DNA of 61,118 nt from Bacteroides sp. CAG:545 (GTDB lineage Bacteria > Bacillota > Clostridia > Oscillospirales > Ruminococcaceae). The translations under genes were made by a program, and so were the position numbers. Positions 27,393-31,761 of this stretch are shown here, piece after piece (position 1 is the first letter of the stretch; the number at the start of each line of letters is the position of its first letter). The notes below the pieces were generated by a model. That model saw only the letters and a program-made list of their open reading frames with translations, made no database searches and had not been told where the DNA came from. The stretch is from the NCBI GenBank assembly GCA_963646665.1, contig CAVIXY010000001.1, positions 1 to 61,118 on the forward strand. Direction: 5' to 3'.

Positions 27393-27422
27393 TTGACAAG
27401 AAAGTGCATCCGGGAATATAAT
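27393..27422 (+). promoter_or_regulatory. Consensus sigma-70 promoter
   Basis: TTGACA (27393-98)-N18-TATAAT (27417-22). Confidence 0.85.
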
Positions 27423-27493
27423 CTAATGAGATATTATGGCGAACAACGCTGTTTTTTGCACGAAAGTGCAGCAGACAAGAAAGGCGGAAGCGG

Positions 27494-27799
27494 ATGAATT
27501 ATCCTGCGGAATATGTCGTACTGGAAGCGGAGGAAATGACCTACCTGGAAGGCGGCAGCATCTATACGGTCGGCCAGAAGGTATTCGATACGCTTTACAA
27601 ATCATTTGCGAATAAATGCCAGGCGCAGTTTCTGAAAAGTCTGCGCGGCATGGTGTGGAACTGCCTGCAGCAGCAGAGCCTGCAGCCGGTGGAGGAGTTC
27701 GGAAAGGATTTTATGGACCTTTCCTTGGCCAAAAAGGCCACCTTCCTGTACGGCGGTTACATTGTGGGCAAAACCACGGTCGAGCTGTGGAATGCCTGA
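27494..27799 (+). CDS. Small protein with MAM-like double-glycine leader (paralog 1)
   Basis: MNYPAEYVVLEAEEMTYLEGG leader; shares VWNxLQQxSLQPV..GK with the ORF at 31416. Confidence 0.8.
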   Translation: MNYPAEYVVLEAEEMTYLEGGSIYTVGQKVFDTLYKSFANKCQAQFLKSLRGMVWNCLQQQSLQPVEEFGKDFMDLSLAKKATFLYGGYIVGKTTVELWNA

Positions 27800-27810
27800 T
27801 CCCCTGACCG

Positions 27811-28590
27811 ATGAAGCAGAATGTAAAGCTCCTGGTGGCGATGCACAAGCCCTACGCGCTGCCGGGGGAGGAGATCTATTGCCCCATTCAGGTGGGCGGG
27901 GCGCATATCCCGGGGCTGGAACAGGCGCTGCGGGATGACACCGGCGAAAACATCGCCGCCAAAAATAGTTCCTACTGTGAGCTGACGGCGCTGTACTGGG
28001 CCTGGAAAAACCTGGATGCGGATTACATCGGGTTGGTGCATTACCGGCGCTACTTTGCAGGGCGGCACCCGGCACGCAGCAAAACCGGCCGCATTGCCAC
28101 CGGAGCCGAGATCGAAGCGGCACTGGAACAGGCACCGGTGATCCTGCCGCGCAAACGGAATTACTGGATCGAGACCACCTATTCCCAGTATGCCCATGCG
28201 CACCACAAAGAGGACCTGGACACGGTGCGGCAGATCCTGGCTGAGCAGTACCCGGCTTATCTGCCGGCCTTTGCGGCGGTCATGGGCCGCACGGACGGGC
28301 ACCGCTTCAACATGCTGGTAATGCGCCGGGACCTGCTGGATGCCTACTGCACCTGGCTGTTTGCGGTGCTGGCCGAAGCCGAGCAGCGCATGGACATCCG
28401 GGATTACGATGCCTACAACCGGCGGGTATACGGTTTTCTGGGAGAGCGGCTGCTGGATGTCTGGGTGGAAACGAACCATGTGCCCTACACTGAGCTGCCC
28501 ATGGTCTTTCTGGAAAACCAGCACTGGCTCAGAAAAGGCACAGCCTTTCTGCGGCGGAAGTTCTGCGGGGAACGCGCCGAACTGCGCTGA
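27811..28590 (+). CDS. DUF4422-type glycosyltransferase
   Basis: DDTGENIAAKNSSYCELTALYWAWKN, YIGLVHYRRYF, RVYGFLGERLLDVW. Confidence 0.9.
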   Translation: MKQNVKLLVAMHKPYALPGEEIYCPIQVGGAHIPGLEQALRDDTGENIAAKNSSYCELTALYWAWKNLDADYIGLVHYRRYFAGRHPARSKTGRIATGAEIEAALEQAPVILPRKRNYWIETTYSQYAHAHHKEDLDTVRQILAEQYPAYLPAFAAVMGRTDGHRFNMLVMRRDLLDAYCTWLFAVLAEAEQRMDIRDYDAYNRRVYGFLGERLLDVWVETNHVPYTELPMVFLENQHWLRKGTAFLRRKFCGERAELR

Positions 28591-28614
28591 CCCCCGCACA
28601 AAAGAGGAGAATGC

Positions 28615-29814
28615 ATGGCTTTTTACATGGTGGGCACCCTGGCGTCCTGTATGCTGGCGGTGTGGATGCAAAGGCAGGATGCCCTGCTGCCCGGCGGGGT
28701 CTCCGCCCGGCGGCGCTGGCAGAAGATCCTGCTCTGCGGCTTGCCGCTGATCCTGCTCAGTGCCATGCGCTGGGGGACGGGCACCGATTTTTACTATACC
28801 TATCTGCCGGAGTTCCGGGCGCTGCAGTGGCTGCGGGCCGGCGGCGGGGAGCAGCTGTGTGAAGAACTGTTCCGCCCGCTGCTGGGGCTTTTGAATCAGA
28901 CGCTGGGCCTGCCAAAAGAGCCGGAAGGCGTGCTGCAGTATTATCTCCGGGTGCTGAGCAAAAGCGAGCCGGGCTACCGCGCCCTGATGGAGCTGGATGT
29001 GCTGCTGGGCGGGCAGTTCCGGGTGGTGGTTGCTGCAACCTCGGTGATTGTGGGCGTCTGCGTGTTCTACGCCATTTTTACCCAGAGCACAAACCCGGTG
29101 CTGGCCATCTACCTGTATGTGGCCACCAGCAATTATTTTCTGAGCCTGAACATCGTGCGCCAGTACGTGGCCATTGCCATCGGGCTGGTGGCACTGCAGT
29201 TTGCAAAGGAGCGGCGTCTCTGGACGTTTCTGCTCTGCGTGGCGCTGGCCATGGCCTTTCACACTTCGGCGGTGCTGCTGCTGCCGTGTTATTTCCTGGG
29301 CCGTGTGGAGCTGAAGCCCCGGTACGCGGTGCTGCTGGTGGCACTGACCTTTGCGGGGTCCGGTGTACTGGGCACGGCAGCGGCCTGGCTGATGCCCCGC
29401 ATCGGGCTGGGGTACTATGCACGATACCTTGGCTCCAAATGGGACGATGGCAGGCTGGAAGTTATCCTGCTTGGCATCAACCTGTGCGTGCTGCTGTTCA
29501 GCAGCTGGTACTGGTCTGCAGCCCAAAAGCGGTGCCCCTATTTTATCCTGTGGTACAACATGACCCTGCTGGGCACGCTGGCGCTGGCTTTGTCGGCGGT
29601 GCTGCCGCTGATGAAGCGGGTGAACTACTACTACGCGGCCCCGCAGTTTTTGCTGCTGCCGGAGGTTTTGCAGGCTGAAGAAAATGCAAAACGCCGCCGC
29701 ATTTTAACGGTGCTGATCGTGCTGGCCTTTGCCGCCGAAACGATCGTGGCCGTTGGCATTTACAACAAGAACGGTGTGCTGCCGTATCAGGTGCGCGCCG
29801 TATCAAACGGATAA
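28615..29814 (+). CDS. EpsG family (Wzy-like) polysaccharide polymerase
   Basis: RWGTGTDFYYTY, EPGY, SLNIVRQYVA, AFHTSA; about 10 TM segments. Confidence 0.87.
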   Translation: MAFYMVGTLASCMLAVWMQRQDALLPGGVSARRRWQKILLCGLPLILLSAMRWGTGTDFYYTYLPEFRALQWLRAGGGEQLCEELFRPLLGLLNQTLGLPKEPEGVLQYYLRVLSKSEPGYRALMELDVLLGGQFRVVVAATSVIVGVCVFYAIFTQSTNPVLAIYLYVATSNYFLSLNIVRQYVAIAIGLVALQFAKERRLWTFLLCVALAMAFHTSAVLLLPCYFLGRVELKPRYAVLLVALTFAGSGVLGTAAAWLMPRIGLGYYARYLGSKWDDGRLEVILLGINLCVLLFSSWYWSAAQKRCPYFILWYNMTLLGTLALALSAVLPLMKRVNYYYAAPQFLLLPEVLQAEENAKRRRILTVLIVLAFAAETIVAVGIYNKNGVLPYQVRAVSNG

Positions 29815-30462: not shown

Positions 30463-30493
30463 AACCGACTACGCCAAAAAGGGAGCGGATTTT

Positions 30494-31345
30494 ATGAATG
30501 GATCTTGGAAAAAAATCCTCGCGGGGGGCTGCCTGTGCGCTGCAACGGCGGCAGCTCTCTGGAGTGCCGGTGTAAACAGCAACACCGGCTTTCTGATGCG
30601 TGTGATCGACGAAACGCAGTCGCAGGTGCGGCAGGCTGTGGAAGAGGCGGCTTCTCTGGGAGCAGACTCTTCGCTGCAGGACGAGATCGAGGAACTGGCA
30701 CCGTCTACCTCAGAAGAGGCAGGCAGCAGTGCCGCGCAGCCGGAAACGCCGGAAGATCTTGCGCAGGAAAACACGGTGGCTTCCATGGAAGAAACCGCTT
30801 CCGGCAGCACGGCGGCATCCGAGCCGTCCGCTGCAGAGAGCAATGCCTCCCACTCCCATGCATCCAGCGAGACCGGCAGTTCCGAGCCGTCCTCCCACCC
30901 CGCTTCCTCCGCAGCAGGCTCCTCTTCGGCGGCTGCTTCGCAGGAGGACCCGCAGGCACAGATCGACGCCCTGGTGGCGCAGCTGTATACCGTGCAGGAC
31001 AAGTTTGAGCGGCAGCTGCTGGAGATCATCCGGCAGGCCCACCAGGAATACATGTCCTATCCGGAAGAAGAGCGCGGCACCGTGAAAAAGGTTGCGGTGG
31101 TGCTGAGCAAGGTGGGCGACATCAGCGCCATGGAAAAGCAGTGCGATGCCGAGGTGAAGCAGATCACCGATCAGATGACCACGATCCTCAAGGCAAACAA
31201 TATGGATACATCCATTGTAAAGGATGTGCAAAAAACCTACAGCGACAAAAAGTCTGCCCTGAAAAAAGAACTGGTGGATCAGACCTACAGCGGCGGCGAT
31301 GGCAGCGGCACTTCCGGCCACTGGCTGTATGACCGCCTGGGCTGA
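30494..31345 (+). CDS. Hypothetical exported protein with Ser/Ala/Glu-rich linker and helical C-terminal domain
   Basis: N-terminal basic+hydrophobic segment, low-complexity Ser-rich middle; GGGAG RBS. Confidence 0.75.
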   Translation: MNGSWKKILAGGCLCAATAAALWSAGVNSNTGFLMRVIDETQSQVRQAVEEAASLGADSSLQDEIEELAPSTSEEAGSSAAQPETPEDLAQENTVASMEETASGSTAASEPSAAESNASHSHASSETGSSEPSSHPASSAAGSSSAAASQEDPQAQIDALVAQLYTVQDKFERQLLEIIRQAHQEYMSYPEEERGTVKKVAVVLSKVGDISAMEKQCDAEVKQITDQMTTILKANNMDTSIVKDVQKTYSDKKSALKKELVDQTYSGGDGSGTSGHWLYDRLG

Positions 31346-31415
31346 CCGCCCCGACACAAGCCGAAAATGCTGTTTGCGGACAGCGTTTCTGAAATAGAAC
31401 AATGAGGTGAAGATT

Positions 31416-31700
31416 ATGGTTTATCCCTGCGTTTATACCAAGATCCAGGAAGAAGAGATGACCTACCTTTCCGGTGGTTCTCCGCTGGATGCATTCAACT
31501 ACCTGCTCGGTGACTGGTTCAAGGATATGGTGCTGAGCGATATCCGCAACTCGGTGTGGAACAGCCTGCAGCAGGTCAGCCTGCAGCCGGTGGCCGATAC
31601 CGGCAAAAAGGTCCTGGGCTGGTCCATTCCGGCACAGGCTGCCTATGCATACGGTGTGTATCGCCTGTATGAGATCATCAAGCCCATCTGGAATAAGTAA
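31416..31700 (+). CDS. Small protein with MAM-like double-glycine leader (paralog 2)
   Basis: MVYPCVYTKIQEEEMTYLSGG leader; GAGGTG RBS 6 nt before the ATG; homologous to the ORF at 27494. Confidence 0.8.
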   Translation: MVYPCVYTKIQEEEMTYLSGGSPLDAFNYLLGDWFKDMVLSDIRNSVWNSLQQVSLQPVADTGKKVLGWSIPAQAAYAYGVYRLYEIIKPIWNK

Positions 31701-31716
31701 GGCTCCGGCCTGAACC

Positions 31717-31761
31717 GCACCCCGTGCACAGCTTTTTGGCTGCAGCACGGGGTGCTTTTTT
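31717..31761 (+). terminator. Intrinsic terminator closing the 27.5-31.7 kb operon
   Basis: GCACCCCGTGC...GCACGGGGTGC-TTTTTT. Confidence 0.8.

Follow-up and report, generated by a model that had tools for sequence, protein, structure and literature searches.

The closest described counterpart of the proteins considered here is Faecalibacterium's microbial anti-inflammatory molecule (MAM) with its adjacent peptidase-containing transporter. In the accessible text of the two reports on it (PMC12184118, PMC8836110) only MAM is described as cargo, and the corresponding part of PMC12184118 prints the N-terminal peptide of MAM, gives the leader signature MMMPANx(8,11)VxGG, reports helices at residues 37-70, 74-86 and 100-119, and lists 257 'MAM-like' proteins. 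Other points of reference are PCAT1 of Clostridium thermocellum with its 90-residue cargo CtA, together with the exporters of class II bacteriocins and competence peptides; the Wzx/Wzy-dependent cps/eps loci of Firmicutes, which comprise CpsB, CpsC/Wzz, CpsD, a priming transferase, glycosyltransferases, Wzy and Wzx; and Kingella PamA and the N-terminal domain of Klebsiella WbbM (PDB 6u4b), the latter being, according to the accessible part of PMC12269835, a transferase of UDP-galactofuranose and the one member of the GT111 family to have been characterised. Here we consider a six-gene operon in a stretch of 61,118 nucleotides (the window), which is contig C1 of G000, a 2.26 Mb genome assembly that is 82% complete; other G numbers denote other genomes of its genus, taken to be Faecalibacterium. 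The operon is best explained as a self-contained, horizontally mobile six-gene cassette encoding a surface glycan and three envelope proteins, namely two small products of open reading frames ORF1 and ORF2 with MAM-type double-glycine leaders and a Ser-rich 'stalk' protein. Its components are of known kinds, while their combination, like the two protein families, seems not to have been described before.

ORF1 and ORF2 share 36% identity (E 5e-20), in agreement with the first-pass annotation of the window, which had taken them for paralogs and had quoted their leaders correctly. Both leaders are 21 residues long, end in GG and fit the recognition consensus for C39 peptidase-containing ABC transporters (PCATs) as quoted in the accessible part of PMC12184118, in that positions -12, -7 and -4 are hydrophobic, -8 is Glu and -2/-1 are Gly-Gly (L10, E14, M15 and L18 in ORF1; I10, E14, M15 and L18 in ORF2). 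Across 18 family members P4, E14 and G20 are invariant and G21 is conserved in at least 90%. The member from G014 (L026, G014:C8 7700-7987) has a leader that ends in V-G-S-G instead of x-G-G, a variant cleavage motif. As in MAM, the leader follows the 21-residue pattern M-x-x-P-A-x-Y-x-x-I-x-E-x-E-M-T-Y-[VL]-x-G-G, and the MAM N-terminus that the annotation had given agrees with the peptide printed in PMC12184118. A significant profile match to MAM leaders had been set beforehand as a test of the idea, and it was found on comparing, by hhalign, the 18 small-family members with 35 MAMs of the genus: the full-length profiles match with a probability of 95.8% (E 6.5e-9) and the leaders are aligned residue by residue, which bears out a MAM-type double-glycine leader on both proteins.

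The additional claim that the small proteins are themselves 'MAM-like proteins' or 'MAM paralogs' is not supported. Once the leader is removed, the profiles of the mature parts give no match (E 0.19, probability 0.3%), a BLASTP search with the mature parts likewise gives none, and MAM is absent among the 39 matches that the small-family profile retrieves from 1.84 billion representative proteins. Further, ORF1 starts MNYPAEY with a leader ending in LEGG and ORF2 starts MVYPCVY with a leader ending in LSGG, and neither would match the strict MAM motif as given in the accessible part of PMC12184118. The export tag is thus shared with MAM, while homology of the cargo is not established; judged from their sequences, the small proteins carry the export tag of MAM, not its mature domain. 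It could nonetheless be supposed that the mature parts, though very divergent, are homologous to MAM and insert into, cap or nucleate the MAM lattice. The common leader would fit this supposition, as would the same short F-N...I-G-[DN] stretch that is aligned in both profile comparisons, with and without the leader, and a similar predicted long-short-long layout of helices: the AlphaFold2 model of ORF1, built on the family alignment, has a disordered leader followed by helices at 23-60, 64-74 and 78-100 (pLDDT 72.9), in comparison with those reported for MAM. However, a three-helix layout is common and too simple for the likeness to be counted as evidence, and the small family is found in only 5 of 90 other species genomes of the genus as against 70 of 90 for MAM homologs. 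Together with the negative comparisons of the mature parts, this renders divergent MAM paralogy improbable.

The small proteins form a small family of their own. The profile search mentioned above yielded its 39 matches at E <= 0.001, two of which are repeat proteins and were judged spurious. The five carriers in the genus besides G000 are G021, G460, G050, G023 and G014; in a sample of 400 other genomes of the same taxonomic family the matches are confined to this genus, and none was found in the 397 genomes that represent 165 other genera. The locus recurs in G021 at ~95% identity, promoter and terminator included. In G460 all six genes recur in the same order with 50-78% protein identity between unrelated flanks, such that the similarity to the window starts at ORF1 and ends at ORF2. 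Additionally, the third-position GC content of the cassette is lower than that of its surroundings, both in G000 (~0.70-0.72 for four of the six genes, as against 0.81-0.82 in the upstream ABC-exporter genes) and in G460 (L093 8197-12360; ~0.53-0.62, as against 0.74-0.80 in the flanks), a pattern consistent with horizontal acquisition. The recurrence of the same six genes in unrelated flanks, taken with this composition, indicates that the six genes form a mobile unit.

The remaining three carriers, G050, G023 and G014, have one small gene directly before a homolog of the Ser-rich protein and lack the DUF4422, EpsG and priming-transferase genes. In G014 the pair of small and stalk genes follows Wzz, a CpsD-like ATPase and CpsB, while in G050 and G023 it is followed by a gene for a 494-aa protein related to the Wzz of the genus (hhalign probability 91%, E 9e-7; weak match to the CpsC family). 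Thus, the small gene adjoins a stalk gene in all six carrier genomes, and all six loci hold polysaccharide genes, be it the cassette (three genomes), Wzz-CpsD-CpsB (G014) or the Wzz-like 494-aa protein (G050 and G023). These observations call for a revision of the module that had been proposed at first, in which MAM-family secreted proteins were coupled to surface-glycan genes: the link to polysaccharide genes is borne out in all five other carriers, whereas a likeness to MAM is shown for the leader only. The glycan enzymes as such accompany the small genes in G000, G021 and G460 but not in G050, G023 and G014, where only the Ser-rich homolog is kept. The conserved partner of the small protein is therefore the Ser-rich protein and not the three glycan enzymes, a point that the first-pass annotation had missed; small protein and stalk protein make up the conserved core, which is met with in several polysaccharide settings, the three enzymes being one of them.

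The ~490-aa family to which the Wzz-like protein belongs (L024 5940-7427, L025 5615-7099, L069 about 7050-8500) is Wzz-like at the N-terminus and in the second membrane segment, carries a long helical insertion and extends by ~135 aa at the C-terminus; it has no Pfam match, and its kinship with Wzz is seen at the profile level only. The G014 locus (L026) also encodes another stalk paralog, which is of lipoprotein type (4355-5014), and a MORN-repeat protein of 529 aa that includes a Ser-rich region (8853-10442).

In the family tree the proteins encoded at the upstream and at the downstream position fall into separate clades (support 99/96 and 100/98), with the single-copy proteins as a third group. 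Comparison with the G021 orthologs gives ratios of nonsynonymous to synonymous substitution rates of 0.11 for ORF1 and 0.29 for ORF2, so that both small genes are under purifying selection, albeit on small counts. The separate, supported clades and these ratios together indicate that both paralogs are real, old and non-redundant. The mature parts have masses of 8.4-9.1 kDa and isoelectric points (pI) of 8-9, with no membrane-spanning segment (top 19-residue hydropathy 0.79), and the pI exceeds 7.9 in 11 of the 18 members. Cys is missing from ORF2 and is not a conserved residue of the small family.

The Ser-rich protein begins with a hydrophobic segment (residues 8-26), which is followed by an acidic linker rich in Ser, Ala and Glu (pI 4.05, 30% Ser+Thr) and by a C-terminal domain of ~130 aa that AlphaFold2 models as an all-helical bundle (pLDDT 85.5). 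A Foldseek search of this domain against the PDB returned nothing at E <= 0.001, an all-against-all fold search returned only designed or spectrin-like helical bundles (best Z 11.7, where caution is advised up to ~13), and a protein-atlas search returned no named family. The domain occurs in 33 of 60 sampled genomes of the genus, often in 2-3 copies (52 places including that in G000), while outside it two weak matches were found, both in one other genus, in the sample of 397 genomes of 165 other genera. The sequence cluster of the G460-type stalk protein has 2178 members, so that cassette-bearing strains should not be rare. We examined 26 stalk loci, comprising those of the window, G021 and G460, the three with a single small gene and another 20, which amount to 25 of the 52 places plus G460. 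Three of them are cassettes, nine have the stalk gene directly after Wzz-CpsD-CpsB and three include the Wzz-like 494-aa gene, so that polysaccharide genes are adjacent in 15 of the 26. In a tree of the stalk domain with two well-supported major clades, an adjacent small gene occurs in both, which favours a functional pairing over a single accident of descent.

The string of Wzz, CpsD-like ATPase, CpsB and stalk gene is kept in nine loci of eight species genomes (L063-L068, L070, L081 and L026). In seven genomes (G010, G013, G018, G036, G048, G051 and G059) a stalk gene lies ~18-21 kb from a MAM gene, and in six of these it is part of the Wzz-CpsD-CpsB string, the copy in G036 being without cps neighbours.

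As regards the three enzymes, the DUF4422 protein of the window matches the WbbM N-terminal domain over residues 2-220 (E 1.1e-32) and is, by this likeness, of GT111 fold and probably a galactofuranosyltransferase; a UDP-galactopyranose mutase is present in G000. Unlike WbbM and PamA, it is a stand-alone protein that would belong to a Wzy-type and not an ABC-transporter-dependent pathway, and its donor sugar is putative. The EpsG protein of the operon is the sole EpsG match in G000, and the match of the priming enzyme to the WbaP/EPS_sugtrans models is confined to their C-terminal catalytic part. The cassette thus resembles the Firmicutes cps/eps loci in its priming transferase, glycosyltransferase and EpsG/Wzy polymerase, and relatives of its stalk gene directly follow Wzz-CpsD-CpsB. 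However, it differs from them in lacking flippase, Wzz, kinase, phosphatase and LCP genes, in having one glycosyltransferase only, and in the addition of double-glycine-leader proteins and a stalk protein. The statement that the operon is without a flippase or chain-length gene stands, none of the six genes being identified as such by Pfam/PF02706 matching. Elsewhere in G000 a candidate Wzx-type flippase is found on contig C144 (one Polysacc_synt match above the cut-off). Wzz, CpsD and CpsB were not found in this assembly (Wzz by PF02706 and tblastn), which is only 82% complete, so that a Wzz gene may be unassembled; in G460, which is 99% complete, a Wzz gene lies elsewhere in the genome.

The same gene set could in principle be that of a glycoprotein system, the alternative that had already been raised in the annotation, in which an undecaprenyl-linked galactofuranose glycan is put on the Ser-rich stalk or on an invariant Ser/Cys of the small proteins and is not a free polysaccharide. 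The Ser- and Thr-rich linker, predicted to lie outside the cell, would offer acceptor residues, and a Wzz gene is found neither in the operon nor in G000. Additionally, a reading of the alignment shows Ser or Cys two positions after the invariant Trp in all 18 small-family members (W-N-C in ORF1, W-N-S in ORF2). This position could be one of packing or of modification; it lies inside a predicted helix and may be a packing residue. Further, the sole glycosyltransferase of the operon is the GT111-type enzyme: neither a SunS-type enzyme nor an oligosaccharyltransferase-type (Wzy_C/PglL) enzyme is encoded, the hallmarks of glycocins (SunS-type GT2, paired Cys) are absent, and the membrane enzyme belongs to the EpsG polymerase family. 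Three genomes (G050, G023 and G014) retain the pair of small and stalk genes but have none of these enzymes, and the missing Wzz may simply reflect the incompleteness of the assembly. On this balance, transfer of the glycan to protein seems unlikely.

The annotation had named a peptidase-containing ABC transporter for the processing of MAM, and the genome provides one: G000 has a single C39 ABC transporter gene, on the 4-kb contig C146, with a Peptidase_C39 match at E 1.3e-26 and an intact Gln...Cys catalytic motif. One such gene is likewise present in each of G460, G021, G014 and G023, standing beside MAM genes in G021, G023 and G014, and none was found in G050, which is 95% complete. As in PCAT1/CtA and the bacteriocin and competence-peptide exporters, a double-glycine leader with the -12/-8/-7/-4 pattern and a small cargo go together with a C39 domain that has its catalytic Cys. 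Unlike in those systems, the cargo genes of the cassette lie far from the transporter and have no immunity or accessory genes beside them, and several unrelated cargo families would share the transporter. The comparison with MAM is similar: the small proteins come from the same genus, presumably use the same transporter and have a small helical mature part, but their genes are rare, are not beside the transporter, and are embedded in polysaccharide loci, where they are paired with the stalk protein.

We favour, with somewhat better than even confidence, a reading in which the small proteins are cargo of the MAM transporter that acts outside the cell, together with the stalk protein, in surface-glycan assembly. 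One promoter would drive a minimal undecaprenyl-phosphate pathway that, going by family matches, consists of the priming transferase, the GT111 enzyme and the EpsG/Wzy-type polymerase. These enzymes would build and polymerise a short, probably galactofuranose-containing repeat unit on undecaprenyl phosphate, with a flippase borrowed from elsewhere in the genome. The membrane-anchored stalk protein would hold its helical bundle outside the cell on the acidic Ser-rich stalk, whereas ORF1 and ORF2, having no transporter of their own, would be cut after Gly-Gly and exported in trans by the single peptidase-containing (MAM) transporter of the genome. Outside the membrane, the mature three-helix proteins (~8-9 kDa, mostly mildly basic) and the stalk protein could then serve jointly as accessory factors by which the polysaccharide is assembled, controlled in length or anchored. 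A tentative and distinctly less probable extension is that small and stalk proteins form an unrecognised extracytoplasmic polysaccharide-assembly module served by the MAM export route, the small proteins docking on the stalked bundle and setting the length of the galactofuranose glycan or tying it to the MAM lattice. If so, one transporter would coordinate the envelope's protein and sugar layers.

Several points weigh against the favoured reading. Gene content, leader pattern and synteny are observed, and it is from these that we infer cleavage, export, site of action and role. The C39 transporter of G000 is on a different contig from the operon, so that its use in trans is an assumption. The 26 stalk loci are a picked subset of the known places, and 11 of them are without a polysaccharide gene within ~8 kb, from which it follows that the stalk family is not exclusive to glycan loci. 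Further, none of the 20 additional stalk loci has a small-family gene, although such a gene was picked up by that scan in each of the three single-gene loci, which indicates that in most genomes the stalk protein works without the small protein. The predicted folds of both proteins are generic helical arrangements that name no function; for the small-protein model, Foldseek against the PDB gave nothing at E <= 0.001 and the all-against-all fold search no Z above 5.3. Lastly, the size, charge and leader of the peptides are similar to those of class II bacteriocins, and the named protein-atlas clusters nearest to the small protein are Bacteriocin_IIc, ComC and MccV, at a score of 0.82, a level at which matches are often due to chance. 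Co-folding of mature ORF2 with the C-terminal domain of the stalk protein scored 0.00, with the partner's own fold uncertain in the model, a result that speaks neither for binding nor against it.

The last two resemblances lead to the main rival explanation, in which ORF1 and ORF2 are unmodified class II, possibly two-peptide, bacteriocins exported through the MAM transporter, with the Ser-rich protein acting as immunity factor and the glycan genes being mere neighbours in a variable island. Besides the atlas clusters, the canonical double-glycine leader, the size and basic charge of the mature parts, the presence of two paralogs within one operon, the patchy spread and the island-like composition would all be in keeping with it. 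However, searches of ORF1 and ORF2 against Pfam and NCBIfam matched no family, bacteriocin families included, and the neighbours are glycan enzymes. In known two-peptide bacteriocins the genes are adjacent; in contrast, the two small genes are 3.6 kb apart and bracket the enzymes, an order that is kept in G460. Neither mature part has a hydrophobic or GxxxG-rich segment, as the low hydropathy maximum attests, and several small-family members are acidic (pI 5.0-6.9). The supposed immunity family, furthermore, is present in more than half of the sampled genomes of the genus, mostly without a small gene and often in Wzz-CpsD-CpsB operons. The bacteriocin locus is accordingly a serious but rather unlikely explanation; were it true, the small family would be a competition factor among Faecalibacterium species.

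Turning to the anatomy of the operon (Table 1), the promoter, the terminator and the six co-oriented genes that they enclose are all where the first-pass annotation had placed them, and the products that it had named are upheld by Pfam matches for the three enzymes, with the small genes and the gene for the Ser-rich protein in place. The intergenic gaps measure 11, 24, 15, 31 and 70 nt. ORF2 is taken to start at the ATG at 31416 behind a GAGGTG ribosome-binding site, the GTG at 31407 falling within that site. Four promoter-like sites were found in the 7.5 kb from 26000 to 33500, where shuffled sequences average 1.7, and only the operon promoter attains the full score of 12/12; it is identical in G021 and absent from the unrelated DNA upstream of the G460 cassette. 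The fold of the operon terminator is equalled by none of 200 shuffles, and its sequence is identical in G021. The fold of the 5' leader RNA is unremarkable (z -1.8), and an Rfam scan of the whole window gave no match.

Table 1. Elements of the six-gene operon and its boundaries, in coordinates of the window.
Element	Coordinates	Strand	Description
Terminator of upstream ABC-exporter genes, left boundary of the unit	27286..27313	+	12-bp stem with 11 GC pairs, then TTTTT
Sigma-70-type promoter	27393..27422	+	TTGACA-N18-TATAAT, 12/12 matches
ORF1, small protein, 101 aa	27494..27799	+	MAM-type double-glycine leader of 21 aa, three-helix mature part of 80 aa; belongs to the 'upstream' subfamily
DUF4422/GT111 glycosyltransferase, probably galactofuranosyltransferase, 259 aa	27811..28590	+	Pfam DUF4422, E 1.4e-87
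EpsG-family (Wzy-like) repeat-unit polymerase	28615..29814	+	Pfam EpsG, E 5.1e-45
Small polyprenyl-phosphate sugar-phosphate transferase (priming), 210 aa	29830..30462	+	Pfam Bac_transf, E 7e-67
Ser-rich 'stalk' protein, 283 aa	30494..31345	+	Membrane anchor, acidic linker, C-terminal helical bundle; no Pfam family above the cut-off
ORF2, small protein, 94 aa	31416..31700	+	MAM-type double-glycine leader of 21 aa, mature part of 73 aa; belongs to the 'downstream' subfamily
Intrinsic terminator of the operon	31717..31761	+	Stem 31717-31755, then T6; -38.5 kcal/mol, z -4.69

Upstream of the operon lie a gene for a MarR-family regulator (22660-23172) and two genes for fused membrane-plus-ATPase ABC exporters (23592-25343 and 25343-27265), the stop and start of which overlap. 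This exporter pair (23592-27265) was considered as a possible part of the unit and rejected: it has no C39 domain, it is separated from the operon by a terminator, and it is not beside the G460 cassette. Downstream, a minus-strand operon (31827-35190) with its own terminator (31799-31773) converges on the cassette, with genes for a response regulator of the LytTR type, a GHKL histidine kinase resembling AgrC (32876-34435) and a SHOCT-domain protein of 336 aa (31827-32837); it is kept in G021 and is not next to the cassette of G460. Pairs of GHKL kinase and LytTR regulator often sense double-glycine peptides, and stalk paralogs adjoin such kinase/LytTR pairs in G014 and G034. It is thus conceivable that ORF1 and ORF2 are peptide signals for the neighbouring two-component system. 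However, the kinase and the regulator converge on the operon and are absent from the flanks of the G460 cassette, and the kinase-adjacent stalk loci have no small gene. Moreover, the mature parts are folded domains of 73-80 residues, far longer than the known peptide pheromones. A signalling role is therefore highly improbable.

In literature searches we found no account of double-glycine proteins inside polysaccharide loci, nor of MAM-leader families other than MAM or of the stalk family, the 257 'MAM-like' proteins of PMC12184118 lying outside this comparison. The locus offers one MAM-tagged family that is tied to surface-glycan loci in all six genomes holding it, and with it a handle on the substrate range of the MAM transporter. 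Additionally, it offers a handle on a strain-variable, probably galactofuranose-containing surface glycan, which could affect host recognition, and on an uncharacterised stalk family that rides with Wzz-CpsD-CpsB regulators in many species.

The MAM-type leader (E-E-M-T-Y-x-x-G-G) is not restricted to the cassette, which the first-pass annotation had likewise overlooked. At least ten open reading frames in seven loci of G000 carry it, and they comprise two true MAMs and at least four other, unrelated families of small proteins (C5:21392-21814, C52:2-433, C61:4078-4825, C65:3432-3677, C84:4805-5266 and nearby; loci L027-L031). The products of the two MAM genes have the published N-terminus of MAM and also its size (140 and 143 aa), and it is from these genes that the genus is taken to be Faecalibacterium, while a tandem pair of 117 aa and 107 aa and a 145-aa type recur in many genomes of the genus. 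The spread of the leader over unrelated families points to the MAM export tag as an address label common to the whole genus. Some of these other genes are likewise found in envelope loci (L029 on C61, 4078-8352; L030 on C65, 250-4277; L028 on C52, 2-3891): the pair on C61 comes after genes for a DUF4358 lipoprotein, an acyltransferase of the MBOAT type and an AlgX/DHHW protein, the gene on C65 is flanked by those for a Listeria-Bacteroides-repeat protein and a signal peptidase, with a sortase gene nearby, and the MAM on C52 is followed by HlyD-family and Big_2 proteins.

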